Origin: a virus
Taxonomy: Duplodnaviria; Heunggongvirae; Uroviricota; Caudoviricetes
Virus record (IMG/VR): IMGVR_UViG_3300047445_000122
Strand: one strand, 5' to 3'
DNA: 64,000 bases
The position numbers and the translations under genes were made by a program. The stretch's first letter is position 1. Each line of letters starts with the position of its first letter. The notes beneath the pieces were generated by a model. The model was not told the origin of the DNA. It saw only the letters and a list, made by a program, of their open reading frames with translations, and did no database searches. Of this stretch, positions 2,761 to 34,971 are shown one piece after another.

Positions 2761-3306
2761 TCATTGGTTGAACTCCAACTTGGTTTCATGTTCCAGGCAA
2801 TCATGGATGTTGGTCTCAGTGCACTTGGGCATGAGCTTGCTTTGTTCCAGCCTGAAGAAGCGCTCCAGGCGGCGGTCATAGCGGTAGACCTTCACACCAT
2901 GATCAAGCAGGTACTTGATGCCATCCCGGTCGCGGTAGTCATTCTCATACACGAAGCCAACCACGCCAGACAGTACCATGTCGGTTGCACATGGATAGCA
3001 AGCTGCGTGGGTACAGAACATGACGGAGCCTTCGGAAGACTCTGAGGACTTGCGCAGCTTGTTCAGGGCGTTGATCTCAGCATGGCGAACATCAGAGCGG
3101 GTCTTCAACCCACCATGACCATCGCACTCTTCGCAGACATTCGGTTCGCCGGGGAGGCGTCCATTCCAACCTTGGGCAACCGGAATGTCTCCGGTCTCGC
3201 CCTTGACGAGCAAAGCGCCCACACGCAGACGTTGAGCATGGGAGTTGGCAGCGTAGCAGGCCGCAGCGTTCAGGTGGGCAATTGCGTGGCGGGTCTTGAT
3301 GTTCAT
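2761..3306 (-). CDS. dCMP deaminase (cytidine/deoxycytidylate deaminase zinc-binding family)
   Basis: HAEINAL followed by CTHAACYPCA (HxE ... PCxxC zinc motif). Start reassigned to ATG 3306 (MNIKTRH), which has a perfect AAGGAAA SD; this creates an ATGA overlap with ORF 3303..3608. Confidence 0.8.
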   Translation of the reverse strand: MNIKTRHAIAHLNAAACYAANSHAQRLRVGALLVKGETGDIPVAQGWNGRLPGEPNVCEECDGHGGLKTRSDVRHAEINALNKLRKSSESSEGSVMFCTHAACYPCATDMVLSGVVGFVYENDYRDRDGIKYLLDHGVKVYRYDRRLERFFRLEQSKLMPKCTETNIHDCLEHETKLEFNQ

Positions 3307-7306: not shown

Positions 7307-7375
7307 TCTGTAGTTCCTTTCAGTTTGATCTCGCGGTATTGCTCGACCTGAAAAGATTATACTTGGTAACTTGAT

Positions 7376-7712: not shown

Positions 7713-9070
7713 TACTTGGTGTTGTACAGTTCGCGGCCATAGGCCTGGCTGACATCACCCAGCACGATGTACTTACAGCAACGGCACTTGTCGAAGTTGT
7801 AGTCAGTCGGTACGGACACGATGTCGCGTGGATCGACCTTGACTTCAACCAGGCGGTCGCCGCCGCTGGAGCTGGAGAAGTGACGGACATAGCCCGGAGC
7901 ACAGATGTGCAGACCGTGGGAGCAAGTCACGTTGTCGCGGTCATCGACCTTGGAACGTGGCATCTCGACAGTCAGGCCTGGGTTGTTCTTCATCGTACCA
8001 GTGTACTTGTCCAGGTAGTTGTTGCGTACAACCTTCAGGGCGATGATGTCGCCGTCGCCGTCGATGCGGAGGCCAGTCTTGGTCACGAAGTTGAACAGGT
8101 TCTTGTTGACGCGGAAGGAATGGGATTCTTCCAGCTTCTCGAAGAAGCGGCTGAACTTCTCCAGACCCTTTTCATCGGAGTCTTCCAGGCAGCGCATCAT
8201 CACGCCAGCCAGTTCGGAGTCGATGCGCTTGCCATCGAACGTCACACCCTGGGCGGTCACGACCATCTTGCCACTGGACCAGCGCGACAGAGCACCAACC
8301 ATGTCGATCAGATCGTACAGCAGTTGCAGGTCTTTCTTGTAAATCTGGTTGTTCTGGACGTTGGCCACAATCGCGCTGATCTTGTCATAGTTCTTGTGGG
8401 TCTTGTCAATCTGCAGTGGAGTGCTGTCGCGCACCACAGTCAGAACTTGAGGCAGGACGATGGCCTGGAACGGCACCAGAACATCAGGCTCGGTGTCATC
8501 CGCAGCCAGGGAGTTGGTAGGCAGTTCATCGACCGCCTTCATGATGAACAGAACAGCATCCTTGACGGTCTTGATCTTCTCAACATCTTCATCTGGAATC
8601 TCGATGTCGAACTCATCTTCCAGAGCCATAGCCAGCTCAACGGTGTCCAGGGAATCAGCGCCCAGGTCATCGATGAAGTGGGATTCTGGGGATACATCAC
8701 CGGCATCAACGCCCAGTTGATCAATGATGACTTCGATGGTCTTGTTCAGGATGGTGGTGTTCAGCTCAGGCTCCGGGGCCGGAACGATCTTGGCTTCAGC
8801 CGGGATCGCCTTGGACTTGCGTGGCTTGGCTTCCTTCTTCGCCTTCGGTTTGCGCACACGCTTCGGCGCGGCTGCTTTCTTGGCCTTCTTGGTGGTCTTG
8901 GCCTCAACCTGTTCTTCGGTTGGCTTCGGTGCGTTCTCTGCTACAGCCCAGCGAGCCAGGGTGGAGCGGGAGATACCAACCTTGTCAGCCGCTTCCGACT
9001 TGCTCAGACCATTGGCCTGGTAGTTCTGGAAGCTGATAACTGCTTGGATTTGTTGACTCGTCAGAATCAT
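7712..9070 (-). CDS. multidomain protein: N-terminal HTH, Lys-rich linker, acyl-carrier-protein (ACP) domain, and a C-terminal 250-aa domain of unknown function
   Basis: Residues about 115..185 ([59 protein letters not shown]) match bacterial AcpP almost motif-for-motif, including the DSL phosphopantetheine-attachment serine. N-terminal [20 protein letters not shown] helix-turn-helix. Strong SD before ATG 9070. Confidence 0.7.
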
Positions 9071-9145: not shown

Positions 9146-12058
9146 TCAAGGCATCAAGATTGACTTGGCTTTCTCAAGCGCCGCTTCAAACTCCAGGGTG
9201 TCCCGGTCAAAGAAGCTGCCAAACAACACGGCCTTGTACTGTTCCTTGATGTATTGCTCACGGAACTTCTTGAAGTTGCCCTTGGCATGCTCATACAACT
9301 CATTGTGGTAGAAGCGGCCTGGTTTGGATGGCTCGAAGCCGGGAGCGAAGGTGGTGCGCTTCGCAAAGTCCATCGCCAGACGACTTGCCTCAACCAGAGA
9401 CAGCTTCACGCCGTAGTGTTGGGCGTATCGATAGCCGAAGGCGATCACAGGCGGAATGTCATATTGATCGTGATGATACAGAGCACCGCCATTCTTCAGC
9501 GAGTACAATGCCATCTTCAAGTGCTTGTTGATCCGGGACGGCGGGAGGTTCGTGGACTCCTGGAAATTCAGGAACTTGGACGACCACACTTTCGTGTAAT
9601 AATCCTTCTTCCGCAGGGCGATGTCTGTACCTGGGCTGTCCTTGTAGGCATTGGCCAAAGTGAACGCCTTGTAACGGCGCTGGAATTGACGGGAGCCCAC
9701 TTGGTTGTAACCAACGCTGTCAAGGAAGTCGGACAGAGGTGTGATATTCAACTCATCCTTGTACTTGTCAACGTTCTTGAAGTTCATCGGAGTGATGCGG
9801 TACAGGTTGAAGTTCTCTTCAGCCAGGGAGGCCACTGTGACCAACAATCCCATGTTCAGGCTCATTGGGAACTCGCGTGTCAACTCCATGTCCAGGTAGG
9901 ACTTCTCAGACTTGCCGTCATTGTACAACAAGAAGCCTGGTTCAACCTTGTCTGTCGAAGCCGGGATGGCTGAGAAGGAACTGCGCTGGTTGTTATTGAG
10001 ATTGGCCGGGGATTGCATACCATACTTCATGGAGCGTTTCTCAATCTCCAGGATGCGCATACCGCGCACAGAGACCTTCAGAGGATCGCGCTCAGCCTTC
10101 GGTACAGTCACAGTGCTCAGGCGGATGATCTTGGGTTTGTACTCCAGGCTCTGGCTCCAAGCCTCATAGAAGGCAAAGCCGTCTTCAGTGTCGGAACGCA
10201 CCAAAACCACACGGCAACGCAGCTCCCATGGATTGAGGGTCAAGCGGTCTTGAACATCAGCAATACCGCGTTGCTCACCCAGGGTGTTGCGCATGATCCA
10301 AGTGATGCGCCTTGACATCTCATTGTCGGTATCAACATACACAACAATGTCGTTGTGGCGGAAGTGTTGGTCATTCACCGGAACTTGAGACAGGTCGGTG
10401 TAGCTACCGTAACTTGGGCTGACAGTGCCATGGCTTGGAACCACAGAGTGGGTCGCCCGGAGGACAGGCAGGTATTGCTTGACATTGCGCTTGAAGAGAA
10501 CGCGCTGGGCAGTCATGTAGCCGCCCTGTTCCCAGTCACGAACTTGTTCAGGTTCCCCAGACAAGGCAGCGAAGTCAGGTTCCCAACCAGCAGCCACCAT
10601 AGCACCAATTTGGTCATTGCCACGAGCAGTGTACTCGATAGAGCGGTTGGTGGTGACGACTTGAGTGATGCCGTTGACAACCACATCCATGGTATCGGTC
10701 TCAACTGAAACATCAACAGCCACGTGTTTGGTTTCCTCAACCTCACGCTCCATGTGAGGGAATGTGATCTTGACGTCCTGGGTGAGGCGGCGCGGCTGGG
10801 ATGCGTTCAACTGCAGCTTGCCGTTGACTGGCAAGCCCTTGGAGTTGATCACAGGCGGGAGGTTGCAACCCATGTCCATTTCCCACTCGACCTCCTTCAT
10901 GGCAAAGATCATCTCACTGTTCACGCCATGGTTGGTCCAATCGCAGTAGTTCAACACACGTAACAGACTGGCGGACAGAGTCTGGATGCTGGTGTCGTCA
11001 GTGACCGCTCGAACGTGGTTCTGTAAGGTTGGGATGAACTCCTCAACCAACTTCTCCAGGCGCAGGAGGATGTTGTAACAAGTCTGAGCGTCATACTCCA
11101 GCGCTTCCCGGCTCGGCGGAATCTCAAGGTCACCGATCCCGAAGAACAGAGCAAACACTGAGTCCTTGGCGGATGGGGAGAACTTCTCAACTTGGCGGAT
11201 GACCTCACCAATGCGACCGGACAGACCTTCCACATACACGCCGCTTTCCTTCAGGGTGTTGATGTAGTCATCTTCCAAGTCGATGTTGATCAACTGGTTC
11301 ATGTCCAGAGGGTAGGACACGCCGCCCATGTTGGCCAGGAATTGACCATAATAGCGAGACAGACCCTGGGAGTGTACATACTTCCAGTCGGTGCCTTCAA
11401 ACTTGATGTCGCCGTAGTTCTCCCAGATGTCAGCGGAGTTTTGACCCACAACGATTGGGCGCGGCTCGAAGAAGAACAGCTGCGCCGCGACAGAGCGCGC
11501 ATAGGTCTCGTAACGCCCAACGCTGGACGGAACCTTGTACGTGATGCCGTTTGGCTCCTCCGTTGGCTTAGAGCCAATGTGAACCAGCTTCGGGATGCTA
11601 CCCTTGGCACGGAAGAATGAGAAGCTGTGTAGCTGGCCCTCGAACCGGCTCTCAATGATGTAGGAGTCAGTGACGGCGAACGGCGACTTGGAACCCAGAC
11701 CATAGGCACCAATGGACATGTTCTCGTTCTCTTTCGTGGACTCAAACAGGTTGCCCAGATAGCGCTTGACGTTCTCGATGGACAGGCCGGTGCCGTTGTC
11801 GCTGATGATCAGCTCGTGAGTCATGTGGCTCGGCAGATGGATGTGCCATTGACCAGGGGCCGTACCAGTGAGGCGTGCGAGGTCATGCATTGCGTCGCGG
11901 GCATTCGCGCCTAGCTCACGCACCACCGCATCTTCCTTCTTGGTATACAGTTTGTCAATCATCAGGGAGAACGACTTGCCGTTCATCTTGGCGCCCATGT
12001 CACTGACGCCCCCGATGTTGCTAACTGTTACGACTGATTCTTGTTCATGTGTGATCAT
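9146..12058 (-). CDS. large GHKL/Bergerat-fold ATPase-domain protein (970 aa), function unknown
   Basis: N-terminal N-box ELGANARDAMHD, G1 box ISDNGTGL and G2 box GAYGLGSKSPFAV (Hsp90/GyrB/MutL-like). No toprim or topoisomerase active-site motifs were found in the remaining 800 aa. Confidence 0.5.
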   Translation of the reverse strand: MITHEQESVVTVSNIGGVSDMGAKMNGKSFSLMIDKLYTKKEDAVVRELGANARDAMHDLARLTGTAPGQWHIHLPSHMTHELIISDNGTGLSIENVKRYLGNLFESTKENENMSIGAYGLGSKSPFAVTDSYIIESRFEGQLHSFSFFRAKGSIPKLVHIGSKPTEEPNGITYKVPSSVGRYETYARSVAAQLFFFEPRPIVVGQNSADIWENYGDIKFEGTDWKYVHSQGLSRYYGQFLANMGGVSYPLDMNQLINIDLEDDYINTLKESGVYVEGLSGRIGEVIRQVEKFSPSAKDSVFALFFGIGDLEIPPSREALEYDAQTCYNILLRLEKLVEEFIPTLQNHVRAVTDDTSIQTLSASLLRVLNYCDWTNHGVNSEMIFAMKEVEWEMDMGCNLPPVINSKGLPVNGKLQLNASQPRRLTQDVKITFPHMEREVEETKHVAVDVSVETDTMDVVVNGITQVVTTNRSIEYTARGNDQIGAMVAAGWEPDFAALSGEPEQVRDWEQGGYMTAQRVLFKRNVKQYLPVLRATHSVVPSHGTVSPSYGSYTDLSQVPVNDQHFRHNDIVVYVDTDNEMSRRITWIMRNTLGEQRGIADVQDRLTLNPWELRCRVVLVRSDTEDGFAFYEAWSQSLEYKPKIIRLSTVTVPKAERDPLKVSVRGMRILEIEKRSMKYGMQSPANLNNNQRSSFSAIPASTDKVEPGFLLYNDGKSEKSYLDMELTREFPMSLNMGLLVTVASLAEENFNLYRITPMNFKNVDKYKDELNITPLSDFLDSVGYNQVGSRQFQRRYKAFTLANAYKDSPGTDIALRKKDYYTKVWSSKFLNFQESTNLPPSRINKHLKMALYSLKNGGALYHHDQYDIPPVIAFGYRYAQHYGVKLSLVEASRLAMDFAKRTTFAPGFEPSKPGRFYHNELYEHAKGNFKKFREQYIKEQYKAVLFGSFFDRDTLEFEAALEKAKSILMP

Positions 12059-12580: not shown

Positions 12581-12858
12581 TACTTGAGAATCGCCAGACA
12601 GCTTTCTCGGTCTTTGTTCAGAGAGTCAGTCCACTGAACCACTGCCATGTCGCGGATCGAAGTGACCAGGGCTTCGACATCCCAATTGGTCAGATCGGCT
12701 TCGATGAACATGACCTTGCCATCATCCAGACGCCAGTTACACACCAGGTCAACCTTCAGTGTCTTCGGGCCGTTGTCTACATCGACACGCATCCAAGACA
12801 CGAACCAACCGGCGTTGATGGTGGCCAGGAGCTCATCAACAGTATACAGACGGCGCAT
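12580..12858 (-). CDS. hypothetical protein (92 aa)
   Basis: Complete ORF with an ATGA overlap to the TAXI gene. Followed by repeat-element copy B with its terminator. Confidence 0.4.
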   Translation of the reverse strand: MRRLYTVDELLATINAGWFVSWMRVDVDNGPKTLKVDLVCNWRLDDGKVMFIEADLTNWDVEALVTSIRDMAVVQWTDSLNKDRESCLAILK

Positions 12859-13841
12859 TACTTCTTGGCCTTAGCTGCTGGGCCGTTGAAGCGCGGCAGA
12901 TCGGATACCGTGGCGTCAACGTTCTTGATCTCATTCCAGCCCGGTTCATAGCGGCCTTCCTTCAGTTCCTCCAGGTTGGAGGCGATGAGTTGCTTCAGGC
13001 GGGCAACTTCTTGAGCCTTCTGGCCAGTGAACGGGCGGGTTACCAGGACGTTTTGGATGGCCAGGGCTGGGATGTTGTAGGCGCCAATGTTCTTGTAGTT
13101 GAACGGCTTGACGTTGTATGGACTACCAATCGGAGCATCGAACGGGATCAGGGTCAGACCGCTGTTCGCATCCAGAGCCTTGATCGAGGCAACCGGCCAA
13201 CCGGCGACAGTGAAGGCAGCTGCGACTTTGCCGGTGCGCACCAGTTCAAATGCAGCTTCATCAGTCTTCACCGAAGTGAAGCGCATGCCGTAGCCCAGTT
13301 GCTTGTTCAGAACAGCGCCCAGGAGCTCAGCACTGCCCACGGCGGCGACGTTCTGGCCGCGCAGGGAGCTGAAGGAGGTCATGCGGACGTTCTTCAGGTC
13401 GCCGTCCATGAAGCCATACTTCTTCTCGCCACGAACGTTGTAGCCGTTGGCCAGGGCCACAATGTGCAGGTAGTTGTTGTTCAGCGGCATGACCACTTGC
13501 AGGGAGGCGATGTTGTCGTCACCTTGACCCATGGTCTTCAGGGTATCGACTTGAGCCAGGCCCAGATCAGCTTGCTTCTCGCTCAGATCAGTCAGGTTGT
13601 CAAGACCGCCCTTGGTGGTCTTTTCGCAGATCGCCATGTTGTTGCCGACAACCTTCTTGATGTCGCGGTACATGGCTGCGTAGCCTTTGTTGGAAGCGCC
13701 GGTGGCGATGGTCAGACCGTCGCAATCAGCTGCTGGAGCGCCGTCCATCTTGGCTGCGTGAGCCGGGAGGGACATAGTTACAGCAGCCAAGATGCCGAGA
13801 GCGCTGATGCTGGACAGGGCGATGAGTTTGGACAGTTTCAC
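12858..13841 (-). CDS. TAXI-family TRAP-transporter periplasmic solute-binding protein (secreted)
   Basis: Signal peptide MKLSKLIALSSISALGILAAVTMSLPAHA. Segments GLTIATGASNKGYAAMY, KGGLDNLTDLSEKQADLGLAQVD, YLHIVALANGY and GKVAAAFTVAGWP align to the TAXI consensus remembered from bacterial proteins. Likely GTG start with AAGGAG SD. Confidence 0.7.
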   Translation of the reverse strand: MKLSKLIALSSISALGILAAVTMSLPAHAAKMDGAPAADCDGLTIATGASNKGYAAMYRDIKKVVGNNMAICEKTTKGGLDNLTDLSEKQADLGLAQVDTLKTMGQGDDNIASLQVVMPLNNNYLHIVALANGYNVRGEKKYGFMDGDLKNVRMTSFSSLRGQNVAAVGSAELLGAVLNKQLGYGMRFTSVKTDEAAFELVRTGKVAAAFTVAGWPVASIKALDANSGLTLIPFDAPIGSPYNVKPFNYKNIGAYNIPALAIQNVLVTRPFTGQKAQEVARLKQLIASNLEELKEGRYEPGWNEIKNVDATVSDLPRFNGPAAKAKK

Positions 13842-17501: not shown

Positions 17502-17759
17502 TTAGGTTGTCTTGACTTGGTGTTGCAGTACGCCCATCGGGATAGCCTCACGACGCAGTTGCGCCTGGCTGTCGAAGAAGATGGTGTGTACGCTATCACC
17601 CACAACGTGATCGACGGTCATCAGAGGCCAGCAGTTGCCCTTCAGATGGACTACATCGCCAGTCTTGTACTCCGGGGTTGGGATGATCCGGCGTTCCCCG
17701 ATAGGGCCGTAGCCCGTATCAACTTGTTTGTCCCATGCTTTATCAGCAGAGCTACCCAT
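17502..17759 (-). CDS. small protein, DUF2158-like (85 aa)
   Basis: KTGDVVHLKGNCWPLMTV resembles the DUF2158 KxGDxVxLKSGGPxMTV motif. Confidence 0.35.
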   Translation of the reverse strand: MGSSADKAWDKQVDTGYGPIGERRIIPTPEYKTGDVVHLKGNCWPLMTVDHVVGDSVHTIFFDSQAQLRREAIPMGVLQHQVKTT

Positions 17760-18844
17760 TACTTCACCTCGCCGGTGTCAGGATCAACAGTCTCATCACC
17801 CTGGACGCCCAGCTTCTGGGAGGTCAGAGCATACTCATCGCGCACAAAGTCGCGGAACCCTTGGTTGACGATGATCGGCTCCCAGAAGGCATCATCAGCC
17901 ATCAGTTCCTTCAGGCGATACTTCTTGTCGTCCTTGACGCCGCACAGAGGCGTGCGCTGGTAGTAGCCAGAGGTTGGCATGATGATGTAGCCTGCCTTCT
18001 TGGCCAGCTCGAACATGGAGCTGCGCTTGTCGATACCGCCGTCATACGTGACGTGGATCGTGAACTTGGCTTTCTCCTTGACAAAGCGCGACTTCATGAT
18101 GCTGTAGTTGAAGTTCCAGCCCAGCAGTTCCTTGGTGGTGTCGTCCTTGTCTTGGGAACGAGTCACGAACCAGATAGCATCAGAGCTCAGGAAGTTCTGC
18201 TTGCCACCCTTAATGATCGGCTCGGCGTATGGGCTGGACGTGTCATCGTAGTAGGAGTTGATGAAAAAGAAGGGTTGGCCCTTCAGATTCAGTTGTGGAG
18301 TGATGATGCGGAAGAAGGAGTTGATGGACTTCGCACGAGTCATGTCAGTTACAGACTTTTGATCCTCAGCGTCTTCCGCTTCCTTCTTGGAGGCCACCTG
18401 ACTGATGGAGTCCACGAACCACAGGACTTTCTCACCAATCTTCGCCTCACCCAGCATACCCACGACTTGGAAGGTCAGTTCCTCAACGTTGGTGAACGGT
18501 ACGTGGATGATGCGGGTCATATCACAGCCGCGAGTTTCAAACGCAGCCATACCGCCGAATTCACAGTCACCGAAGATGACGATGGCCTCAGGATCGTGTT
18601 GGAGCCATGCGTAGATGATTTCCACACAGAGGTTGGTCTTGAAGGTACGGGAATCACCAACAATCTGGGTGATACCGGCAGTGATACCGCCGTCCATGTG
18701 ACCGGAGCACATGACGTTCAGGATATCAACCATTGTTTTACAGATCACGCGTTTGTCGCCAAACGCGGAGGCATCCAGGGTAGTTGCCAGGGTTTTCGGG
18801 CCTGCTGCCTTGATGAGGCGCGAGGCCAGACTTGAAATTGCCAT
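17759..18844 (-). CDS. uvsX: UvsX recombinase (RecA-like)
   Basis: Close collinear similarity to T4 UvsX as remembered: SRLIKA at the N-terminus; DSISQVASKKEAEDAEDQKSVTDMTRAKSINSFFRIITP versus T4 DSLGNLASKKETEDALNEKVVSDMTRAKTMKSLFRIVTP. Start reassigned to ATG 18844 with AAGGAA SD. Confidence 0.9.
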   Translation of the reverse strand: MAISSLASRLIKAAGPKTLATTLDASAFGDKRVICKTMVDILNVMCSGHMDGGITAGITQIVGDSRTFKTNLCVEIIYAWLQHDPEAIVIFGDCEFGGMAAFETRGCDMTRIIHVPFTNVEELTFQVVGMLGEAKIGEKVLWFVDSISQVASKKEAEDAEDQKSVTDMTRAKSINSFFRIITPQLNLKGQPFFFINSYYDDTSSPYAEPIIKGGKQNFLSSDAIWFVTRSQDKDDTTKELLGWNFNYSIMKSRFVKEKAKFTIHVTYDGGIDKRSSMFELAKKAGYIIMPTSGYYQRTPLCGVKDDKKYRLKELMADDAFWEPIIVNQGFRDFVRDEYALTSQKLGVQGDETVDPDTGEVK

Positions 18845-18854
18845 GCGGGATTCC

Positions 18855-19460
18855 TTATTGGATTGTGACGAACGATTGTTCAATGAAGTCATCGTCCTCC
18901 ATGCCCAACTTATCTGCCATGCGACGCAGGAGATTCATGAGGCTGTTGGTATGGACGATTTGTGAGTTGTAAACCTTGAGACCTGCCAGCTGCTCTTGGA
19001 ATTTAGCAACTTGGTTCTTCAGACTCACGACCTCGGAGAGAGCCGAAATTATAGTGGATTTGGTCTCGAAAGTAAAGGAGCTGAGCTTGTTGAACAAGGC
19101 CTGTTCCTCAACTGTGATCGTGCCATAGATGTGGGCTCCCACAAAGCAAACCTCATCATACTCAAACCCCAGTTCCTCCAGCTTGCTGCTGTTCATGCTC
19201 ATCAGCTCGAAAGCCGCGTCCATGGTCAGCGGCCACAGAGTCCGGTCCAGGACGTTCACTTGGGCAACAACGATGTGTGTCCCGATGACGTCTTTCTGGT
19301 CGTTAGGCAAGATTCCGGCGGCTGGTGACCCGAATTGGTTGAGGTGGTGAGAAAGCTCAACGTACAAGCGTTTAGCCACCTCCTCGGTCAAGCACACGAA
19401 GCGCATGCTCAGAGTCTTCGCGGTCGGGTTCTCCTTGAAGTTCTTCACGTCGTCAAGCAC
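18855..19460 (-). CDS. hypothetical protein (201 aa)
   Basis: Complete ORF between the MazG-like gene and uvsX. Confidence 0.4.
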   Translation of the reverse strand: MLDDVKNFKENPTAKTLSMRFVCLTEEVAKRLYVELSHHLNQFGSPAAGILPNDQKDVIGTHIVVAQVNVLDRTLWPLTMDAAFELMSMNSSKLEELGFEYDEVCFVGAHIYGTITVEEQALFNKLSSFTFETKSTIISALSEVVSLKNQVAKFQEQLAGLKVYNSQIVHTNSLMNLLRRMADKLGMEDDDFIEQSFVTIQ

Positions 19461-20065
19461 AGAGCCTCCTCATTGGCTTTCACATCGACTCCCTTCATCA
19501 CGCCCTTCGCCACGCGCTCATGGTTGCGCTTGTTCTTGAGCATGTAGGCTTCATACAACTCATCGTTGTTGTAGCCCAGGAAGGCGATGCCATGTTGGAT
19601 GAAGTCGATCAAGTACGACATCGTGAACTTGGCTTGGGACATTGCCAACTTGTATGTGTTGGAGCGTGCCGGGCTGATGTCATTCCAGAAATGACGGTAG
19701 GCATCAGACAACTTCGAGTAGAAGTTGGGCTGGTCTGGGGTGACCACATAGCCGGTCGGGAGCGCTTCAATGTCGTCAATCTCGATCATTGGGTAGTGCT
19801 TGACGTATCCGGCGAGCATGAAGTGGATCACATCTACCAGCTCGAACAGGGCTGCTTCACGGTTGAAGACAGGCTTGCGTTCATACCACTTCCACTTCTC
19901 CGTGACTTCCTCCAGGAATTCAGCCAGTTCAGTGTCTGCGGCGGCGTTGAAACGCCAAGCGAATGTTGGGTCAGTTCTCCAGCCGTCGCCATTGTAAGCC
20001 GTGTTGAGGGCTTCTTGAGAACGGCACATGGAACGAATTTGATGGAGGGTCACGATATGGGACAT
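19445..20065 (-). CDS. MazG-like NTP pyrophosphatase (T4 gp56 dCTPase/dUTPase-like)
   Basis: KWKWYERK...ALFELVDVIHFMLAGYV parallels T4 gp56 KWKARYIEAQEK...EIKFELVDIFHFVLNMFVG. Confidence 0.65.
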   Translation of the reverse strand: MSHIVTLHQIRSMCRSQEALNTAYNGDGWRTDPTFAWRFNAAADTELAEFLEEVTEKWKWYERKPVFNREAALFELVDVIHFMLAGYVKHYPMIEIDDIEALPTGYVVTPDQPNFYSKLSDAYRHFWNDISPARSNTYKLAMSQAKFTMSYLIDFIQHGIAFLGYNNDELYEAYMLKNKRNHERVAKGVMKGVDVKANEEALCLTT

Positions 20066-20646
20066 TAGTAGGTCACGCCTTTCTGTTCAGCGAAGTGTTT
20101 GAAGAAGTCAAGGAACGGACCAGTGCCATCCAGACAGTTGTTGAAGGTCGCATGGAAGTCGTTGAAACCACGGATGTACTCCTCGAAGGGGTGTGGAGCG
20201 AGACCTGATTTGCGTTCAACCTTGATGATGGGAACGTCCAGAGGCTTCAACAGCTCCTCATACTCATCCTCAGTGCGGAAGTCAGTGATCACGTACAGGC
20301 GTTCTGGATTTGCGATCACAGCCGGCATCTGATTCTTGATGAAGGCACGGACGAAATACTTGGAGTCCACTTCACGTACCTTGCCGGCCACCAGGATGAT
20401 GTCCCGGCCTGTCGCGCCTGTGGTATTGTTCGGGTGTTCATACACCTTGTCTTTCTGTTCATCGGGCATGTATGCGTTGAACCAAGGGAACATAACCTGT
20501 GCCAGGTTCCGTACTTCATCACTGAAGGACAGACGGACAGCATTATGTTCCTTGACGAGGATGGAGGCAAGGTAATCCTTGCCCACCCTACGTTCACCAC
20601 ACAAACACACCAGATTCTTTCGAGCTGGGCGTGCGATGGTATTCAT
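20065..20646 (-). CDS. deoxynucleoside monophosphate kinase (T4 gp1-like)
   Basis: P-loop CGERRVGKD (T4 gp1 has GVKRSGKD) and the YVITDFRTEDE region (T4 has YIVPDTRQDHE). Translationally coupled to the neighbouring genes. Confidence 0.65.
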   Translation of the reverse strand: MNTIARPARKNLVCLCGERRVGKDYLASILVKEHNAVRLSFSDEVRNLAQVMFPWFNAYMPDEQKDKVYEHPNNTTGATGRDIILVAGKVREVDSKYFVRAFIKNQMPAVIANPERLYVITDFRTEDEYEELLKPLDVPIIKVERKSGLAPHPFEEYIRGFNDFHATFNNCLDGTGPFLDFFKHFAEQKGVTY

Positions 20647-20647
20647 G

Positions 20648-21724
20648 TTACTCCATAATGTTGAATTTGCGGAACGGCGACCAGGTCACGGCGCTCAGGA
20701 GGTCGCCTTGGAGGCGGCGCGTTACGCGGTGTTGGTAGATCACACCCTTCTTCGACAGGATATATCCATACACCAGAGCAGCGTATTCATACATCAGGTC
20801 GCCGTAACCGACAGCATAGCGATCAAAGATGTCTTCGATCTGGTTCCAGTGTTTGCCCCTCTCAGCTTCCAGGATTTCAGTGGTCTGGGTGATCATGGAA
20901 CCGTATTGAGCAATCAGCTCGCTGAAGAAGTGTTCCCACACCAGGTGACCGCCAACTGGACCAACCAGAGCAACATCATTCTCATGGAAGTTCTGTTTCT
21001 CCTCCAGGACAGCATCGAACTGGTCAATGAAGTCGCTGTAGACGTGGGCATTGGTGACGTGCCAGCGGTAGGAACCCAGCTTCACAGTCGGGTGGATCTT
21101 CTTCACCTCATTGTACATCAGCTCGTGGATGAAACTGAACTCGAATGGGTTGATCGAGCCAGTACCAAACAACAGGTCGCCAGAGCGTTGGATACACTTG
21201 GTGTGGAACTCACCATTCTCCACATAGAAGTGGAGCTCACGATTGCATGGGATGTCTTTTGGTACATGACCTTCACCATACACAGCTTCGATGGCTTCCA
21301 GGTTGTCGATGGTTGGGTCAGCAATCGTGACGAAGGAGCGGCGGGTGTTGATACCGTCATTGCGGAATTGATCAACAGCAGTCTGGAACTGGCTGTAACG
21401 ATGGAGGCGAGGGCCGTATGCGCCGTGCCAGGTAACTCCATCATCGCTGTAGTTCTTTGCGCGGGGCAGGAAGAAGTCCAGGTATGGGGTCACTGCGTTG
21501 GCTCCAGCCATGACCCAGAAGGTCTCAGCGATCAGCTGGAAGATGTTGGATTTGCGTCCGTGGAGGTGTAGGTGGCGGGAGCGGGGATTTTTGAACTCCA
21601 GCGTCGTGTCGTACATCGCCAGAGCGTACCCATTGCGGGTGTCTTGTTTGATACCTTCCTTTTGAAGGGCTTGGAAGGCTCGGTGGATTGTGTGTGAGAC
21701 GGTGTTGCCTCGGATAGTTCTCAT
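20648..21724 (-). CDS. ThyA-superfamily enzyme (thymidylate synthase or dUMP/dCMP hydroxymethylase) with about 90-aa C-terminal extension
   Basis: ThyA landmarks in order: RNGYA, ETFWVM, YGP, NTRRSFVT, catalytic PCN, QRSGDLLFG...N, AHVYS. The sequence continues a further 90 aa beyond the canonical fold. Confidence 0.75.
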   Translation of the reverse strand: MRTIRGNTVSHTIHRAFQALQKEGIKQDTRNGYALAMYDTTLEFKNPRSRHLHLHGRKSNIFQLIAETFWVMAGANAVTPYLDFFLPRAKNYSDDGVTWHGAYGPRLHRYSQFQTAVDQFRNDGINTRRSFVTIADPTIDNLEAIEAVYGEGHVPKDIPCNRELHFYVENGEFHTKCIQRSGDLLFGTGSINPFEFSFIHELMYNEVKKIHPTVKLGSYRWHVTNAHVYSDFIDQFDAVLEEKQNFHENDVALVGPVGGHLVWEHFFSELIAQYGSMITQTTEILEAERGKHWNQIEDIFDRYAVGYGDLMYEYAALVYGYILSKKGVIYQHRVTRRLQGDLLSAVTWSPFRKFNIME

Positions 21725-21802
21725 GAAACTCCTTCTTGTTGCTAGAGGTCGTATTATACCTCAGGCTGTTGGTAGTTGGAAACCCAGGGGTCAAGACCAA
21801 GA

Positions 21803-22093: not shown

Positions 22094-23275
22094 TCATTTC
22101 TGTTTCTTCTCTTTGGCGAGCAGGTAGCTGTTGGAGATAACCTTGAAGGTGAACTCCGGGCGGGTCGTGGACTTGTACACATGGCCCTCACGCTTGACGT
22201 CCTTGTTCATGCCTGGGCCTTCAGCCAGTTCCAACAGCTTTGGAACAATCAAGTCGCCCTCGTTCATCAGTTCACTCAGTGGACCAATGAAGTCGATTGG
22301 GGTGTGCTTGACCTCGAATTCATCGGCCATCGCTTGGCGCTCGGCGGCAGTCCAGTACTTCTGCTTGTCAATGTCATACACATCAAACAGGCGGAACTCC
22401 AGGCCTTTGACCTTCTCGTGGTTGTCCTGGATGTTAGGTGCCAGGAGCTCACCTTGGAGGGCATGGGAGCCGTCCAGGCATTCCAGAACTTGGATCAGTT
22501 GTTGGTTATTCACAGCGGCCCAGAAGTTCGAGCCGTCATCGTCGCGCAGTTGCAGGTTGCGCGAGCAAACAGCAGTCACAGGCTCCTTGTACAGACCGAA
22601 CTTGAGCTTGAAGCCGTGTATCAGCTTCCGAATCAAGCCTGGATTCGAGGCTTTGAACTTGAGGTTGATCGCTTCATTGAAGTGTTTCGAGTCCGGGCGA
22701 ACCAGATACGCAGTCAGGGAGGAGCCATCCAGCTTGATCGTGCGCTCAAACACCTCACCCTTGTGGGTGGCAGAGCTCACGGTTTGAACCATGTTCTGGA
22801 CACGCGGTTGATCGGTCTTCGACACGAAGGAAGGAAACACGCGGATTGCGCCGCCGCCATTCGATGCGCCGCCGTTGTTGGTCTTGGCTTCCTCAACAGG
22901 CTCCCACTTCACAATCTTCAGATCGCTGGTGACGTCATCGCCTTCTTTCCAGTTGATCAGCTTCAGTTCCTTGAACTCCTGGATTGGCATCAACAGACCC
23001 TGGGACAGAGTACCACGCAGCTTGATGGTCTTGACACGCATACCGCGACGGCCATCCCAGTTGCTAAAGCGCTCCTCAAAGGAAGCATAGCGTGGATCAG
23101 AGGCATCAAGCCAGCTGTCCACTTCCATGTACACGGCCAGATCGCCTTCCATGTACAGTCCTTTCTGGACCACACATTGCCAGCCGTCGATCAGGGCCAG
23201 TTGAATCTTGTCAGCGCCTTCGATAGGCAGCAGTTGTGAGATGCGGCGAATTGTCGCCAGCTTACGTTCAGTCAT
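22094..23275 (-). CDS. ATP-dependent RNA/DNA ligase-family nucleotidyltransferase with a 180-aa N-terminal domain (Rnl5/DraRnl-like architecture)
   Basis: Motif I KLDGSS about 180 aa from the N-terminus. Start reassigned to ATG 23275 (MTERK) with GGAG SD. Confidence 0.45.
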   Translation of the reverse strand: MTERKLATIRRISQLLPIEGADKIQLALIDGWQCVVQKGLYMEGDLAVYMEVDSWLDASDPRYASFEERFSNWDGRRGMRVKTIKLRGTLSQGLLMPIQEFKELKLINWKEGDDVTSDLKIVKWEPVEEAKTNNGGASNGGGAIRVFPSFVSKTDQPRVQNMVQTVSSATHKGEVFERTIKLDGSSLTAYLVRPDSKHFNEAINLKFKASNPGLIRKLIHGFKLKFGLYKEPVTAVCSRNLQLRDDDGSNFWAAVNNQQLIQVLECLDGSHALQGELLAPNIQDNHEKVKGLEFRLFDVYDIDKQKYWTAAERQAMADEFEVKHTPIDFIGPLSELMNEGDLIVPKLLELAEGPGMNKDVKREGHVYKSTTRPEFTFKVISNSYLLAKEKKQK

Positions 23276-23399
23276 TGATACTCCGGGAATAGGATATGAA
23301 GATGCGTCCTGGACACGCGAGAGCATGGCTAGGAGCAGTGAGGAGGGGATGACCCAAGGATAGGGTCACAAAGCGGGAGGAGACAGCCCGGAACGGGCC

Positions 23400-24518: not shown

Positions 24519-24753
24519 CTTTCTTCCTCCAAGGCCAGTAGGTTTCCAGGCAGTGAGCCAGGATGAGTGTGTTGAGGATCGGAACCAGGATGGCGATCAG
24601 AAGGAGGGTCAGAGCGGCCAGCTTGTCTTCCATAACGCGGGTTGGGCGTGTAGTCTTATTGACCATATCGTACCAACCGCTCAACATCCAGATGATCTGG
24701 ACGCCGACGCCGATTGCTGAGACCAGGTAGACGATGACCAGGAATTTGATCAT
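24502..24753 (-). CDS. small membrane protein (83 aa)
   Basis: Hydrophobic helices. Confidence 0.3.
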   Translation of the reverse strand: MIKFLVIVYLVSAIGVGVQIIWMLSGWYDMVNKTTRPTRVMEDKLAALTLLLIAILVPILNTLILAHCLETYWPWRKKDEQIR

Positions 24754-25028
24754 TTGTCTTCCTTCATGAACTTCTCCACGAACAGAGCCTCAGCTTTCGC
24801 CACGGTCTCGGATTCAACCCACTTCATCTGCGTCCACAGACGGCCATTGCCGTTCAGGAAGTCCGCAGCCACAGCGAAGGTCTTGTGCTCTTCCTTCGTG
24901 AGGGCGGTCTTGATTTTCATCGCGCCGATGATGTTGAAGGCTTGGGCCTTCTTGCCGGCATTGAAGCACTCAATCGCCTTGGCGATGTTGTTCATTGGAG
25001 GCAGGGATGGTTTGGTGGAGTTGTTCAT
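24750..25028 (-). CDS. hypothetical protein (about 92 aa)
   Basis: Start reassigned to ATG 25028, preceded by AAGGAAC and located 29 nt downstream of the promoter -10 at 25057..25062. Confidence 0.4.
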   Translation of the reverse strand: MNNSTKPSLPPMNNIAKAIECFNAGKKAQAFNIIGAMKIKTALTKEEHKTFAVAADFLNGNGRLWTQMKWVESETVAKAEALFVEKFMKEDK

Positions 25029-25056
25029 AATGTAGGTTCCTTTCACAGATGAGTCT

Positions 25057-27278: not shown

Positions 27279-27326
27279 ATTATAGACCACTTTATTGAGA
27301 AAGTAAAGTGGTCTCAGGAAATATTT
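27279..27326 (-). promoter_or_regulatory. conserved phage promoter
   Basis: Minus strand reads AAATATTTCC..CCACTTTACTT..GTGGTCTATAAT, 33 nt upstream of ATG 27246. Confidence 0.6.
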
Positions 27327-28030
27327 TCTGACACGCCTCGTGGACCAAAGTTGTCCAACTTGAAGTCCAACATGTCTGTGATCTTGATAGGACGCACCCC
27401 AGTCAGCTTCAGGTCAGCAGGGATGATATAGGGGCGCTCCTTCAGGATTTTCACTGTAGCGCGTCCATCAACAATTGGACCAACTTCAATAATCGGCGCT
27501 TCCTGGTCAATCTGTCTCTCGACATACTTGGCGTTTTCGATTGGGACGCAATGCTCCATCCCATCCTCGAAGTTGAGAGCCGAAGTGACGTTGACAGACT
27601 TGTAGTTGGCGTGATGGCTATACTCGATCACGCCAACGCACTCAGGGCGCTTGATATCCGCCATCCCCTTGCACCATTCCTCATGACGCTTGAAATGGAT
27701 CTCAATGTCCTTGACGATGTTGCGTACAGTATCGCCGGAAGCCACGAAGTCATCCAGGATCAGGTAGCGGGTCACATCAACGTTCCGCGTGCCTTCAATC
27801 TTCTCTCCGTGGCTCGATTCACCATCCTTGCGAACAACAATCAACGGGAAGTCGATCAACATCAGGGTGGCGAAGGCGAACGACAGACCGCTTTTGCCGG
27901 TCACTGCAATCGCCTGGGCGTCATACTTCTTCAGGAGGAATGGGATGACCTTGGACAGCCTCTGGGCGTGATGACGCAGAGAGACTGGATCGAACTGGAT
28001 GTCTGAGTAACCGCTGGGGCGAAATTCCAT
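27314..28030 (-). CDS. phosphoribosyltransferase (type I PRTase) domain protein with a C-terminal extension
   Basis: Canonical PRPP-binding motif RYLILDDFVASGDTV. Confidence 0.55.
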   Translation of the reverse strand: MEFRPSGYSDIQFDPVSLRHHAQRLSKVIPFLLKKYDAQAIAVTGKSGLSFAFATLMLIDFPLIVVRKDGESSHGEKIEGTRNVDVTRYLILDDFVASGDTVRNIVKDIEIHFKRHEEWCKGMADIKRPECVGVIEYSHHANYKSVNVTSALNFEDGMEHCVPIENAKYVERQIDQEAPIIEVGPIVDGRATVKILKERPYIIPADLKLTGVRPIKITDMLDFKLDNFGPRGVSENIS

Positions 28031-28564: not shown

Positions 28565-29611
28565 TTAAATCAGGCTGTGCGTTGTCGCTTTCGGCTGGGG
28601 AGCGCCTGCGCCGTTGTACTTCGAGCGTACTTGACCACCTTCCTTCAGCCGCAGATACTTGTCTGTTTCGCACAACAGGTTACTGCCGATGTTGTGGGCA
28701 TCTTCGAGGTGGAATTGTACAAGGGCTTCAACTTCAGCGCTGTAGCCATGCTGAATAGCAACTTGTGGCAATGCGACCTTCACCGCCTCCGACAGTTGAG
28801 CAAGCTCAAGGTAGTGTTGAGCTACCGGGATGGACTTGGTCAGTGGGCGACCATGAAGGCGATTCAAGAAGCGAACCGGGCCAGGGCCGATTGGCGCCCA
28901 GGTCTTCCAATCCGGGGCATCGCGCATGGTCATGTACTTCAAGTCTGCGATTTGCTGACCTGCCATGAAGTCACCGTTGGACTTGGCCTTGGTGAGGCGG
29001 CTGTGATAGCTCTGAAGGGTCTCCCCGGCTTCTGGCGGGCCAATTTCATAGATCGCCTTGAAGACGACATGAGCCAGGAAGTAGCGCTTGTCCTTGCACT
29101 TCTCGTACAACTCCAGGTCACCATCGACTTCAGCCGGGTTCCCGCAACCACGGATCATGTAGGCACCGGTGAACAGCTTGTCTTCCCTGCCGACAGCGCA
29201 GAAGCGGGTATACAGGTCATCAGCGTCATAGCCGTTCGTCAAGTCAGTCCAACCCAGCTTCAGGACGGTCGGAGACCAGTTGATCCAGCGCGCTACAGCG
29301 ACGTTGAACCACATGTCCTTGGAGTGATGATGTGGAGTGTAGAACTCCTTGAACAAAATCTCAGTCTCCTTGTCGTGCATGCGGTTGACGTTACAAAAAC
29401 GATGGTCGCGGATGAAGGTGTCTTCGGTCCACGGCTTGGGTTGACCTTCAGCTTTCTTGATGCGGACGGTCTCCCGCTCCAGTGCCCACTCACAGGCAGC
29501 GATCACATGGTTATGATAGTTGGCGGCGAACTCACCGTTGGCCTTGATCTGGTCTTCCAGGGTCTGGGACAGTTCAACAGCCTTGTCAAGTTTTTCAATC
29601 AGTGTGTTCAT
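28565..29611 (-). CDS. hypothetical protein (348 aa); candidate DNA-modification enzyme
   Basis: Conserved-looking globular protein with no motif I can name. Coupled by an ATGA overlap to the downstream P-loop kinase gene. Confidence 0.45.
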   Translation of the reverse strand: MNTLIEKLDKAVELSQTLEDQIKANGEFAANYHNHVIAACEWALERETVRIKKAEGQPKPWTEDTFIRDHRFCNVNRMHDKETEILFKEFYTPHHHSKDMWFNVAVARWINWSPTVLKLGWTDLTNGYDADDLYTRFCAVGREDKLFTGAYMIRGCGNPAEVDGDLELYEKCKDKRYFLAHVVFKAIYEIGPPEAGETLQSYHSRLTKAKSNGDFMAGQQIADLKYMTMRDAPDWKTWAPIGPGPVRFLNRLHGRPLTKSIPVAQHYLELAQLSEAVKVALPQVAIQHGYSAEVEALVQFHLEDAHNIGSNLLCETDKYLRLKEGGQVRSKYNGAGAPQPKATTHSLI

Positions 29612-30396
29612 ACAAAGAACCCTCCCAGGGCATTGGATGTTGGTTTCGGCTCCTCCTTCGGAGCAGGAGCATATTGGGCGATCATTTCTGGGGTCGGCGC
29701 CACTTGACCCATATCAGTCCAGCGCTTGAGCTCAGCGTTGCGCTTGTTGATGTCGAACTTGCGAATGAGGCGATAATCCACATCAGACAAACCGTCAGTA
29801 GCAAGCAAATTCAACATCTGTAAGACATCATTCCGGTCGCCATAGTGCGTCCAGATACCATAGTCAACCGCCTTGTTATGGGAGGTCATGACTGGGCGAT
29901 ACTTGGCACAGACCTTGTCAGTATCCAGAGGATCAATGTTGCCCTTCGAGACCCGGCGCTTCAGGATCGAGTTGAACACCACTTCAGGGTCAATATCAAT
30001 GGTGAACCAGAAGTATGGCACGTTGGCTGTCTTGAGGTCATCATAGATCACTTGAGAACCCTTGAAGGTTGTAGACGACAGCACACCCTCTGCCAGAGTG
30101 GTCTTGATCTTGGCCAGGTGCATGATAGCACGCTGTCCGGCCTCAAACGACTTCATGCCTTGGTCAGTCTTCTTGTCGTGGGTGCCCTTTACAGCGTCCA
30201 GACCACCACAGTCAGTCTCATACTTGCCAACGATGTGATGGGTACCACAGTCATAGTAGTGACAGCCGAACTCCGGGAGGTGTTTCAGCTCAGCATTGGG
30301 CGGCAGGAAGTTGCGGATGATGGTGCTCTTGCCAGTACCATTGGTGCCACGGATATTGATGTATCCAGGATCACCCCATTTCCAGTTTGGGTTCAT
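29608..30396 (-). CDS. P-loop kinase-family protein (polynucleotide / nucleotide kinase-like)
   Basis: Walker A GTNGTGKST within the first 30 residues. No HAD phosphatase DxDGT motif. Confidence 0.5.
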   Translation of the reverse strand: MNPNWKWGDPGYINIRGTNGTGKSTIIRNFLPPNAELKHLPEFGCHYYDCGTHHIVGKYETDCGGLDAVKGTHDKKTDQGMKSFEAGQRAIMHLAKIKTTLAEGVLSSTTFKGSQVIYDDLKTANVPYFWFTIDIDPEVVFNSILKRRVSKGNIDPLDTDKVCAKYRPVMTSHNKAVDYGIWTHYGDRNDVLQMLNLLATDGLSDVDYRLIRKFDINKRNAELKRWTDMGQVAPTPEMIAQYAPAPKEEPKPTSNALGGFFV

Positions 30397-30477
30397 GTTG
30401 CTCCTTTCATTGTTTGGGGGATTATACTACCAATCGAGAAAAATAAATAGCCCCCAGATTTCTCTGGAGGCCATTGT

Positions 30478-31469: not shown

Positions 31470-32327
31470 TCATTGCGCCGACTTGAACATGGTAGGCATG
31501 GTACCCAGATACTGGATCTTGGTATCGCGCAGTGCTTCAGCCTGCATGCGAGCAATTTCCATCTGCATGACTTGCGGGTTGTTACGATAGGCTTGACCAC
31601 GCAGTTCGATGGCCTTGGCTTCAGCTTGAGCGACTTCCACTTGGGCTTGAGCGGTCACAACAACCTTCTCTTGCTCGGCCTTGGTGCGGCGCACTTCGTT
31701 CTCCACCTTCATGGCGTCCTGAGTCGCTTGAATCTTGGCATTGATCGAGGCCACAACGTTATCCGGGAAGTGCAGCTTGCCCAGGTAGCTGATGGATTCA
31801 ACCGTGATACCGATGGTGGCGGCGCGTTTGATTACAGCGTCATTGACTTCCTTCAGCAGCTTGGCCTTGCCGTCGCCTTGCAGGGACTCAACATCATACT
31901 TGGTGCCGGCTTCGTTGAACTCGTCACGAACGAACGTGCGCAGGAAACTGTCGCTGATGACGTCGATGGGCTGGCGGTACTTCTGGAACACCTTGATGGC
32001 GTTCGCCTTCTCCACATGGTAGGAGATTTGGATGTCCGTGGACACGCCGATACCACCGGCCACCTGGAACTGGATCGACTGATCCGGCTTCTTGCTCTCT
32101 TCACTGCGGGCTGTCCACATGTCGGCTTGGGTGAAGGTCGGCAGCAGTTCCACGCTGGTGTTCCAGCCAGCCATGTAGCGACCTGGATCCAGAACCTTGG
32201 AGTCAACGCCACGGTCATCACCGAACTTGTTGAACTGGACGCCAACAAAGCCGTTCGGGACGTTGTTACAGGCCGACAGGCCCAGAGCCAGGGCGGCGAT
32301 AGCTACGAAACGCATCAGACGGTTCAT
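31470..32327 (-). CDS. SPFH/band-7 (stomatin/HflC-like) domain lipoprotein
   Basis: SPFH core with a coiled-coil tail (EVRRTKAEQEK...). Start reassigned to ATG 32327, giving the lipobox MNRLMRFVAIAALALGLSAC. The stop of the upstream small membrane ORF overlaps this ATG. Confidence 0.65.
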   Translation of the reverse strand: MNRLMRFVAIAALALGLSACNNVPNGFVGVQFNKFGDDRGVDSKVLDPGRYMAGWNTSVELLPTFTQADMWTARSEESKKPDQSIQFQVAGGIGVSTDIQISYHVEKANAIKVFQKYRQPIDVISDSFLRTFVRDEFNEAGTKYDVESLQGDGKAKLLKEVNDAVIKRAATIGITVESISYLGKLHFPDNVVASINAKIQATQDAMKVENEVRRTKAEQEKVVVTAQAQVEVAQAEAKAIELRGQAYRNNPQVMQMEIARMQAEALRDTKIQYLGTMPTMFKSAQ

Positions 32328-32536
32328 TGACATACCACCTTGTTCTGGTTGTACAGATGGGTCAGGTACTTGATAGTGAAGTACGCCGCCAGGGCGGTTC
32401 CGACCAGAGCCAGGACCAGCAGAATGGAGGATGCGATTTTCAGGATCGCAGGCAGGACGAAGCCGGTGAAGACCAGCCACAGTACGATGACCAGCAGCAG
32501 TCGCACCACCAGGCCAAATTCTTTGGAATTAAACAT
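32324..32536 (-). CDS. small 2-TM membrane protein (NfeD-like partner of the SPFH protein?)
   Basis: Hydrophobic 70-aa ORF, translationally coupled (ATGA) to the SPFH gene. Confidence 0.4.
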   Translation of the reverse strand: MFNSKEFGLVVRLLLVIVLWLVFTGFVLPAILKIASSILLVLALVGTALAAYFTIKYLTHLYNQNKVVCQ

Positions 32537-34970: not shown

Positions 34971-34971
34971 T

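Follow-up and report, generated by a model that had tools for sequence, protein, structure and literature searches.

Analysis of a 64,000-nucleotide stretch of DNA from an uncultivated virus (IMG/VR record IMGVR_UViG_3300047445_000122; hereafter the window) revealed a three-gene operon at 19445-21724 with the gene order of phages that replace thymidine in their DNA by a modified nucleoside. In reverse complement, the window corresponds exactly to positions 91,384-155,383 of the 165,148-bp Joint Genome Institute (JGI) metagenome contig 3300046684 Ga0495669_0000010. All three genes lie on the minus strand. The first (20648..21724) encodes a protein of the ThyA superfamily with 358 amino acids, a predicted deoxyuridine monophosphate (dUMP) hydroxymethylase, in which a thymidylate synthase (TS)-like core (about residues 1-244) is followed by a five-helix C-terminal domain similar to that of MilA (about residues 245-358). 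The second (20065..20646) encodes a 193-residue deoxynucleoside monophosphate (dNMP) kinase of the T4 gp1 and ΦW-14 gp231 type, the putative kinase for 5-hydroxymethyl-dUMP (5-hmdUMP), and the third (19445..20065) a 206-residue nucleoside triphosphate pyrophosphatase of the all-alpha dimeric-dUTPase family, a candidate dTTPase/dUTPase. Direct reading of the junctions showed that the TAA stop of the ThyA-like gene is separated by 1 nucleotide from the kinase ATG, which has GGAG just upstream (GGAGTAACATG), and that the kinase stop and the pyrophosphatase start overlap by 1 nucleotide (TAATG), bearing out the tight coupling described in the initial annotation.

Two further minus-strand genes follow the operon. 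An orphan open reading frame (ORF) of 201 residues (18855..19460) overlaps the pyrophosphatase stop by 16 nucleotides, is called as a gene in both the JGI and Logan records and is probably co-transcribed; it had no match in Pfam, PHROG or NCBIfam, and none by tblastn in 50,697 phage records. Beyond it lies the gene for a UvsX-like recombinase (17759..18892; phrog_97, E 5e-71; 56% identity to ΦW-14 gp234), the conserved neighbour that anchors synteny with ΦW-14, the Acinetobacter phage SH-Ab 15599 (hereafter 15599) and T4.

The start of the 358-residue hydroxymethylase is preceded by an AAGGAG Shine-Dalgarno sequence and a TATAAT box. The public JGI call for this protein (P0001) has 322 residues and begins 36 codons later, too far downstream given that the alignment of homologues already starts at residue 4; the N-terminal part missed by that call comprises a strand and a helix that are modelled confidently and matched by homologues. 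A sigma-70-like promoter candidate upstream of the operon (TTTCCA-18-TATAAT; 21753..21782, minus strand) agrees with the consensus at 10 of 12 positions, which is weak evidence, and a scan of the region for promoters and terminators returned no more sites than expected by chance. A TATAAT sequence about 30-35 nucleotides upstream of an AAGGAG-ATG was found both at the hydroxymethylase operon and at a gene pair for a 5-hydroxymethyluracil DNA kinase (5-HMUDK; TATAAT at about 30415-30425, minus strand), and the two transcription units may share an early or middle promoter layout.

Profile searches placed the 358-residue protein within the TS superfamily and outside the TS families proper. It matched phrog_3676, labelled 'thymidylate synthase', over residues 16-356 (E 3e-86), and passed the broad superfamily model Pfam Thymidylat_synt (37 bits against a cut-off of 24.3), the only TS model for which it scored above threshold; all seven NCBIfam TS equivalogs failed, with 16-37 bits against cut-offs of 108-427. 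The sequenced phages with the most similar proteins, all aligned end to end, were 15599 (gp17, 44% identity), nACB2 (42%) and ΦW-14 (gp230, 41%), the alignments to 15599 gp17 and ΦW-14 gp230 covering 99% of the length with E values of 1e-82 to 1e-89. The 44% identity to 15599 gp17, the closest hydroxymethylase from a cultured phage, was also the highest to that of any sequenced phage, and the next-best matches came from Serratia, Vibrio and Pseudomonas phages. In total, 532 phage records matched the hydroxymethylase, mostly with Salmonella, Pseudomonas, Vibrio, Klebsiella, Bacillus, Escherichia and Dickeya names and also with Serratia and Bordetella names; by host name alone, we take them to belong largely to the ViI-like, M6-like and Bacillus 5-hydroxymethyluracil (hmU) phage groups. 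The DNA of ΦW-14 contains putrescinyl-thymine (putT) and that of 15599 diaminopropanyl-thymine (dapT), both bases being built from 5-hydroxymethyldeoxyuridine (5-hmdU) supplied by the hydroxymethylase (PMC8989533, PMC13458397). Phage dUMP hydroxymethylases of this type also include SPO1 gp29.

Alignment of the active site confirmed the catalytic cysteine and the dUMP landmarks expected from the first inspection of the sequence. The catalytic residue is C160, in the motif IPCN ('PCN' at residues 159-161), and it is invariant in 9- and 62-sequence alignments together with R128/R129, R180-S181, D183, H227, Y229 and E67; R128/R129 and R180-S181 form the phosphate-binding set. Position N192, within the invariant motif GSINPFEF, aligns with E. 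coli ThyA Asn177 and the B. subtilis Asn and is Asn in all 62 homologues, whereas the cytosine enzymes T4 gp42 (Asp179) and MilA carry Asp there. N192 is therefore the uracil-type Asn and the substrate should be a uracil nucleotide, which settles in favour of hmU the choice between hmU and 5-hydroxymethylcytosine (hmC) that the identity of this residue had been expected to decide.

Other residues distinguish the protein from TS. Three positions before the catalytic cysteine it has D157, which is at least 90% conserved among the 62 homologues and aligns with Asp145 of the T4 deoxycytidine monophosphate (dCMP) hydroxymethylase and with E. coli Leu143; MilA also has Asp at this position. In the T4 enzyme, Asp145 is a unique polar residue that helps to bring water to the methylene intermediate, and in E. 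coli Leu143 supports Trp83 (PMC6400193). The E. coli segment that contains Trp80 and Trp83, VTIWDEWADENG, corresponds to an invariant LPRAxxYSDDG segment without Trp, and the C-terminal tail of TS, DPHPGIKAPVAI, lacks a counterpart in the alignment, the helical domain standing in its place. In TS this tail closes over the folate, and Trp80 and Trp83 shield the methylene intermediate (PMC5175136, PMC6400193). By analogy, the presence of D157 together with the lack of Trp80/Trp83 and of the TS tail points to hydration of the intermediate rather than hydride transfer.

The extra length of the protein, which the initial annotation had treated as a distinguishing extension, is real (about 95 residues relative to the 264 residues of E. 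coli ThyA) and is not peculiar to this phage, since nearly all of the best 120 of 254 homologues (E <= 1e-10) are 357-392 residues long. An AlphaFold2 model for which 62 homologues were used (predicted local distance difference test score 96, predicted template modelling (TM) score 0.94) consists of a TS core followed by helices at residues 263-279, 282-287, 289-302, 310-325 and 340-347. Both TS and MilA folds matched this model at a probability of 1.00. The best structural match in the PDB was MilA (5jnh_B; 360 columns, TM scores 0.70/0.79), the sole solved structure that aligned over nearly the full length; thymidylate synthases aligned over about 245 columns with a TMq of about 0.5. MilA, the cytidine monophosphate (CMP) 5-hydroxymethylase of mildiomycin biosynthesis (PDB 5jnh/5b6d), was also the best PDB match by sequence (E 1.5e-9), and like the window protein it has a C-terminal five-helix domain, Asp three positions before the cysteine and no TS tail; it differs in carrying Asp at the base-specificity position and in its substrate, the cytosine ribonucleotide CMP, and the two proteins share 17-20% identity. 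The extra domain of MilA is distant from the active site and is required for solubility (PMC5175136). A MAFFT alignment hinted that the additional stretch of about 90 residues is an insertion before the conserved last strand and not a tail, and the comparison with MilA favours a C-terminal domain. The extension, a family-wide domain, marks a clade of hydroxymethylases and probably has a structural role, and it is not by itself evidence of new chemistry. The long form proved to be common to phages with proven modified DNA, the opposite of the sharing with unmodified-DNA phages that had been named in advance as counter-evidence.

The second gene product is, as its first description held, a gp1-like dNMP kinase, with a match to phrog_139 (E 7e-30); it is 51% identical to ΦW-14 gp231 and, within the N-terminal half of 15599 gp18, 38% identical to that protein. 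Its match to Pfam DNMK, at 27.6 bits against a cut-off of 27.1, is confined to residues 12-48 and so to the N-terminal P-loop, which reads GERRVGKD. The pyrophosphatase matched Pfam dUTPase_2 (E 1.3e-15, 58.5 bits against a cut-off of 22.9) and showed 28% identity to ΦW-14 gp232, 33% to the C-terminal domain of 15599 gp18 and 35% local identity to T4 gp56; the metal-motif residues of its ExxE/ExxD signature, E46, E49, E75 and D78, are invariant in all four proteins. The C-terminal domain of 15599 gp18 hydrolyses dTTP and dUTP and not 5-hydroxymethyl-dUTP (5-hmdUTP) or other deoxynucleoside triphosphates (dNTPs) (PMC13458397). Equivalents of its Gln13 and Asn17 are kept in the window protein (SQEALN), where T4 gp56, a dCTPase, has Pro and Glu. 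Under the modelled contacts, this conserved Gln/Asn pair is suggestive of dTTPase/dUTPase specificity. The enzyme would most likely act as a dTTPase/dUTPase and not as a dCTPase; its earlier description as 'gp56-like' is right as to homology.

A 5-HMUDK is encoded about 7 kb from the hydroxymethylase operon by two overlapping minus-strand genes. The P-loop subunit (29608..30396, 262 residues, Walker A GTNGTGKST) aligns over its whole length with ΦW-14 gp37 at 52% identity (E 3e-98), whose activity on 5-hmdU DNA has been shown biochemically (PMC8989533). It also matches PHROG 800, 'terminase small subunit' (E 5e-23), a misleading label, since its orthologue in ΦW-14 has been proven to be a kinase of DNA bases. 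The helical-domain partner (28565..29611, 348 residues), a paralogue of the type termed 'aGPT-Pplase clade 1', has a start that overlaps the kinase stop by 4 nucleotides and matches Pfam HMUDK_hel (E 6e-33), phrog_2396 (E 3e-57) and, with 53% identity, ΦW-14 gp72, which is listed as 'aG/PT-PPlase1' (PMC5889632 Table 3). Because a 5-hmdU DNA kinase is without a substrate unless the DNA contains 5-hmdU, this gene pair supports the hydroxymethylase assignment independently, and its presence suggests that the DNA is very probably processed further after replication. A dCMP deaminase of 181 residues, recorded at the outset as a source of dUMP, is likewise present (2761..3306, minus strand), with a match to Pfam dCMP_cyt_deam_1 (E 1.6e-10), the zinc motifs HAE and CYPC and 27% identity to ΦW-14 gp77.

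The closest known arrangement is that of the Delftia phage ΦW-14, which has the same order and orientation of hydroxymethylase (gp230), dNMP kinase (gp231), dUTPase (gp232), small ORF and UvsX. Identities to the window proteins are 41% for the hydroxymethylase, 51% for the kinase, 28% for the dUTPase, 52% for 5-HMUDK (gp37), 53% for gp72 and 27% for the deaminase (gp77). Both ΦW-14 and the source phage are T4-like myoviruses of about 160 kb, and the two share 30-60% identity across RIIA/B, PhoH, gp41 helicase, UvsX, a DEAD-type helicase and baseplate, neck and terminase proteins; nucleotide searches with the operon and with 24 kb of the window against the 50,697 phage records gave no match. 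The two phages differ in that the DNA kinase and clade-1 genes, adjacent with a 4-nucleotide overlap here, are 32 kb apart in ΦW-14, in that the 201-residue fourth ORF is unrelated to ΦW-14 gp233, and in that ΦW-14 has a putrescine:DNA transferase (gp109), none being found beside the window homologue of gp108 or in the 83 kb examined. The dapT pathway of 15599 (gp17 hydroxymethylase, gp18, 5-HMUDK and DADT/Pplase2; Li et al., NAR 2026, PMC13458397) shows the same order of hydroxymethylase, kinase/pyrophosphatase and UvsX; in 15599, however, the kinase and dTTPase/dUTPase are fused (gp18, 391 residues), whereas they are two genes with a TAATG overlap here, and a transferase lies 5 kb upstream of the hydroxymethylase, where none was seen in the window. 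T4 genes 42, 1 and 56 supply the same three superfamilies, a hydroxymethylase with a dedicated kinase together with a pyrophosphatase to keep the canonical dNTP out, and in T4, too, where the order is 42 - b-gt - segA - uvsX - 40 - 41, uvsX and gene 41 lie downstream of the hydroxymethylase gene. In contrast to the compact operon described here, which is aimed at uracil/thymine, the three T4 genes are dispersed and target cytosine (Asp179), and gp42, at 246 residues, has no helical domain.

We consider it highly likely that the three genes constitute that half of a ΦW-14- and 15599-type thymidine-replacement pathway which acts before replication, with the DNA kinase acting afterwards. What the enzymes do, which substrates the pyrophosphatase accepts and whether, and in what form, a final hypermodified base is made are matters that we infer from homology, synteny, conserved residues and predicted fold. 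In the proposed scheme, the dCMP deaminase would supply dUMP, and the 358-residue enzyme would add the methylene group of methylene-tetrahydrofolate to C5 of dUMP via Cys160; the methylene intermediate would then be hydrated, not reduced, to give 5-hmdUMP. The adjacent kinase would phosphorylate 5-hmdUMP, and host kinases would complete the route to 5-hmdUTP. The pyrophosphatase would meanwhile convert dTTP and dUTP to monophosphates, keeping thymine out of the DNA and recycling dUMP, and the phage polymerase would build 5-hmdU into the DNA where T would otherwise stand. Once the DNA has been replicated, the 5-hmdU DNA kinase (29608..30396), with its partner (28565..29611), would phosphorylate the hydroxymethyl group within the DNA, and the group so activated could be replaced by a nucleophile to form a hypermodified base or be converted to thymine. 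Genomic DNA of E. coli came to contain dapT/putT only if the full set of 15599 enzymes, the deaminase, hydroxymethylase, dTTPase/dUTPase and 5-HMUDK together with Pplase2, was co-expressed (PMC13458397). The pathway itself is already known from papers of 2018 and 2021 (Lee et al.) and of 2026; the phage lineage is new.

Several points weigh against this proposal. The evidence comes from the sequence of a metagenome contig. Identities to characterised orthologues are only 41-44% for the hydroxymethylase and, for the pyrophosphatase, 28-33%. No residue taken singly has been proven to separate dUMP hydroxymethylases from TS, and the argument from Asp157 is an analogy borrowed from a dCMP enzyme. 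For the pyrophosphatase, the Gln and Asn contacts of 15599 gp18 with uracil and thymine were modelled by its authors and do not come from a crystal structure (PMC13458397); Tyr35 of gp18 is replaced by Phe, and Trp56 is kept but is also present in the dCTPase gp56. Finally, no transferase was found in the part of the contig that was searched, positions 82,230-164,982 (about 83 kb, comprising the window and about 10 kb on each side, with positions 1-82,229 outside it).

Within that part of the contig, a clade-2 transferase (ADDT/DADT, Pfam PF18724), an enzyme type whose Cys/Glu pair is essential and on which the nature of the final base depends, was detected neither by tblastn with ΦW-14 gp109 and 15599 gp7 nor by profile or in precomputed Pfam assignments, and an unfiltered hidden Markov model of five clade-2 sequences gave a best E value of 0.86 against the six reading frames. 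Scans of IMG/VR and JGI metagenomes with the clade-2 profile placed no transferase on the source contig, and a 45-mer taken from the window had no exact match in IMG/VR. A transferase profile of the ΦW-14/15599 clade found 16 proteins among 5.8 billion, in a database that contains the proteins of the source contig, and none of the 16 lay on a contig of about 165 kb; with a broader transferase profile, the best 120 of 484 matches were considered. These results do not establish that the genome lacks a transferase, because about 82 kb of the contig lay outside the search, 120 of the 484 matches were listed and the corresponding ΦW-14 genes are scattered. The clade-1 protein cannot be argued to substitute for the transferase, as profile-profile comparison of clade 1 (HMUDK_hel) with clade 2 (ADDT), using shallow alignments, gave a probability of 0.2%.

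The window does contain a homologue of ΦW-14 gp108 (24750..25046, minus strand), a protein of about 90 residues without a PHROG or Pfam family match. It is 46% identical to gp108 and 40% and 35% identical to small ORFs that flank ADDT in L177 and L178; the gp108-like gene adjoins ADDT in ΦW-14, L177 and L178, and no transferase adjoins it here. The metagenomic relative L177 has the order Rieske oxygenase, ADDT, gp108-like gene, 53-residue ORF and hydroxymethylase, the last with 63% identity over its first 215 residues. In both L178 (8982-10915) and L177 (1082-3068), a transferase 57-59% identical to gp109 has a Rieske/Ring_hydroxyl_A oxygenase gene directly upstream, the two genes overlapping in L178; ΦW-14 is without such an oxygenase, which is a candidate new tailoring enzyme for bases of the putrescinyl-thymine kind. 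A separate observation concerns a 238-residue protein encoded just downstream of the DNA kinase pair (27314-28030, minus strand), which gave weak PRTase-like signals (Pfam PRTase-CE, E 5e-4; phrog_2068, E 6e-6). It was rejected as a substitute transferase: its only phage homologues lie among early genes of two unrelated phages, RS-PI-1 of Ralstonia and XacN1 of Xanthomonas, with no modification genes nearby.

As to how the pathway would end, it is possible, if doubtful, that this lineage lost both the diamine transferase of the ΦW-14 type and the Rieske oxygenase, which its nearest relatives retain beside the gp108-like gene and the hydroxymethylase, and kept the DNA kinase coupled to the clade-1 protein. 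Its DNA would then carry an undescribed thymidine hypermodification, made by a transferase that is divergent or escaped recognition, or 5-hmdU with or without a phosphate, or else the kinase and clade-1 protein would turn 5-hmdU into thymine. Of the alternatives to our proposal, the one that survives best accepts the pre-replicative module and dispenses with a group transferase altogether, so that the DNA would contain 5-hmdU, partly phosphorylated 5-hmdU, or thymine regenerated by the kinase and clade-1 protein, and no hypermodification of the polyamine or amino-acid type. The absence of ADDT/Pplase2 from the searched region by all three approaches, the lack of any of the 16 clade transferases on a contig of this size and the gp108-like gene without its usual neighbour are what such a phage would show, and, as PMC5889632 states, it is not known how these phages turn 5-hmdU into thymine. 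We nevertheless regard this alternative as unlikely, since all characterised 5-HMUDK phages possess a transferase, one of the ViI- or M6-like clades may exist beyond the 120 matches listed or in the other 82 kb of the contig, and the genes for the kinase, the clade-1 protein and the transferase of ΦW-14 are spread over 55 kb, so that distance says little.

A second alternative, that the 358-residue protein is an ordinary TS with an accessory domain and that the kinase and dUTPase merely raise the dTTP supply and exclude uracil, appears very improbable. The Pfam superfamily score, the 'thymidylate synthase' label carried by most database relatives and a catalytic Cys/Arg/Asn/Tyr set identical to that of TS are consistent with it. 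In contrast, the protein fell short of all seven TS equivalogs by 70-410 bits and has neither the folate-closing tail nor Trp80/Trp83, with Asp at the position of Leu143; moreover, the 15599 orthologue belonged to the enzyme set needed for 5-hmdU-derived bases in E. coli, and the 5-hmdU DNA kinase that the genome also encodes would be left without a substrate. The end-to-end alignment with the ΦW-14 and 15599 enzymes, the equivalog failures, D157 and the DNA kinase together uphold the preference for a hydroxymethylase over a plain TS that the initial annotation had voiced. A T4-like system, in which a dCMP hydroxymethylase, a gp56-type dCTPase and a gp1-type kinase would produce hmC DNA, is scarcely credible: the position upstream of uvsX and gene 41, the gp1-like kinase and the gp56-like metal motifs and local identity recall T4, but Asn192 is invariant where the dCMP and CMP enzymes have Asp, identity to gp42 is 17%, a phage-encoded dCMP deaminase would drain the substrate, the DNA kinase is of the 5-hmdU type, the pyrophosphatase has Gln/Asn and not the Pro/Glu of gp56, and no glucosyltransferase was seen.

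The remainder of the window contains several genes outside the modification pathway. Twenty tRNA genes occur in three groups (34893-36618, 37232-38863 and 41351-41519, minus strand), and this cluster accounts for a stretch of about 1.8 kb without protein-gene calls. An RNA ligase gene (22094..23326) lies in the window and a gene for a HAD_PNKP protein just outside it, which suggest a tRNA-repair set. An rIIB/rIIA pair (7712-9070 and 9146-12058, both minus strand) corresponds to ΦW-14 gp2/gp1; the rIIB homologue has an N-terminal helix-turn-helix and, unusually for rIIB, a match to the phosphopantetheine carrier family Pfam PP-binding (E 6e-14, residues 112-173). Unexpected accessory genes, all on the minus strand, encode a DUF4262 protein (6839-7471), an NMT1_3-like protein of the solute-binding type (12858-13841), an SPFH/Band-7 protein (31470-32480) and a GroES-like Cpn10 (about 35229-35516).

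These results bear on how such genes are annotated and on the diversity of thymidine modification. ThyA homologues of about 360 residues that combine KD-x-PCN, GSINPFEF and a MilA-like helical C-terminal domain should be annotated as dUMP hydroxymethylases and not as thymidylate synthases. Thymidine hypermodifications shield phage DNA from most restriction enzymes, and the enzymes that make them are tools for new DNA chemistry. The contig brings to this group an uncultivated ΦW-14-like myovirus that branches deeply and has, besides a complete precursor module, a DNA kinase whose two components are translationally coupled. If the rest of its genome has an unusual transferase, or none, this lineage could lead to a new base or to the enzyme still missing for the step from 5-hmdU to thymine.

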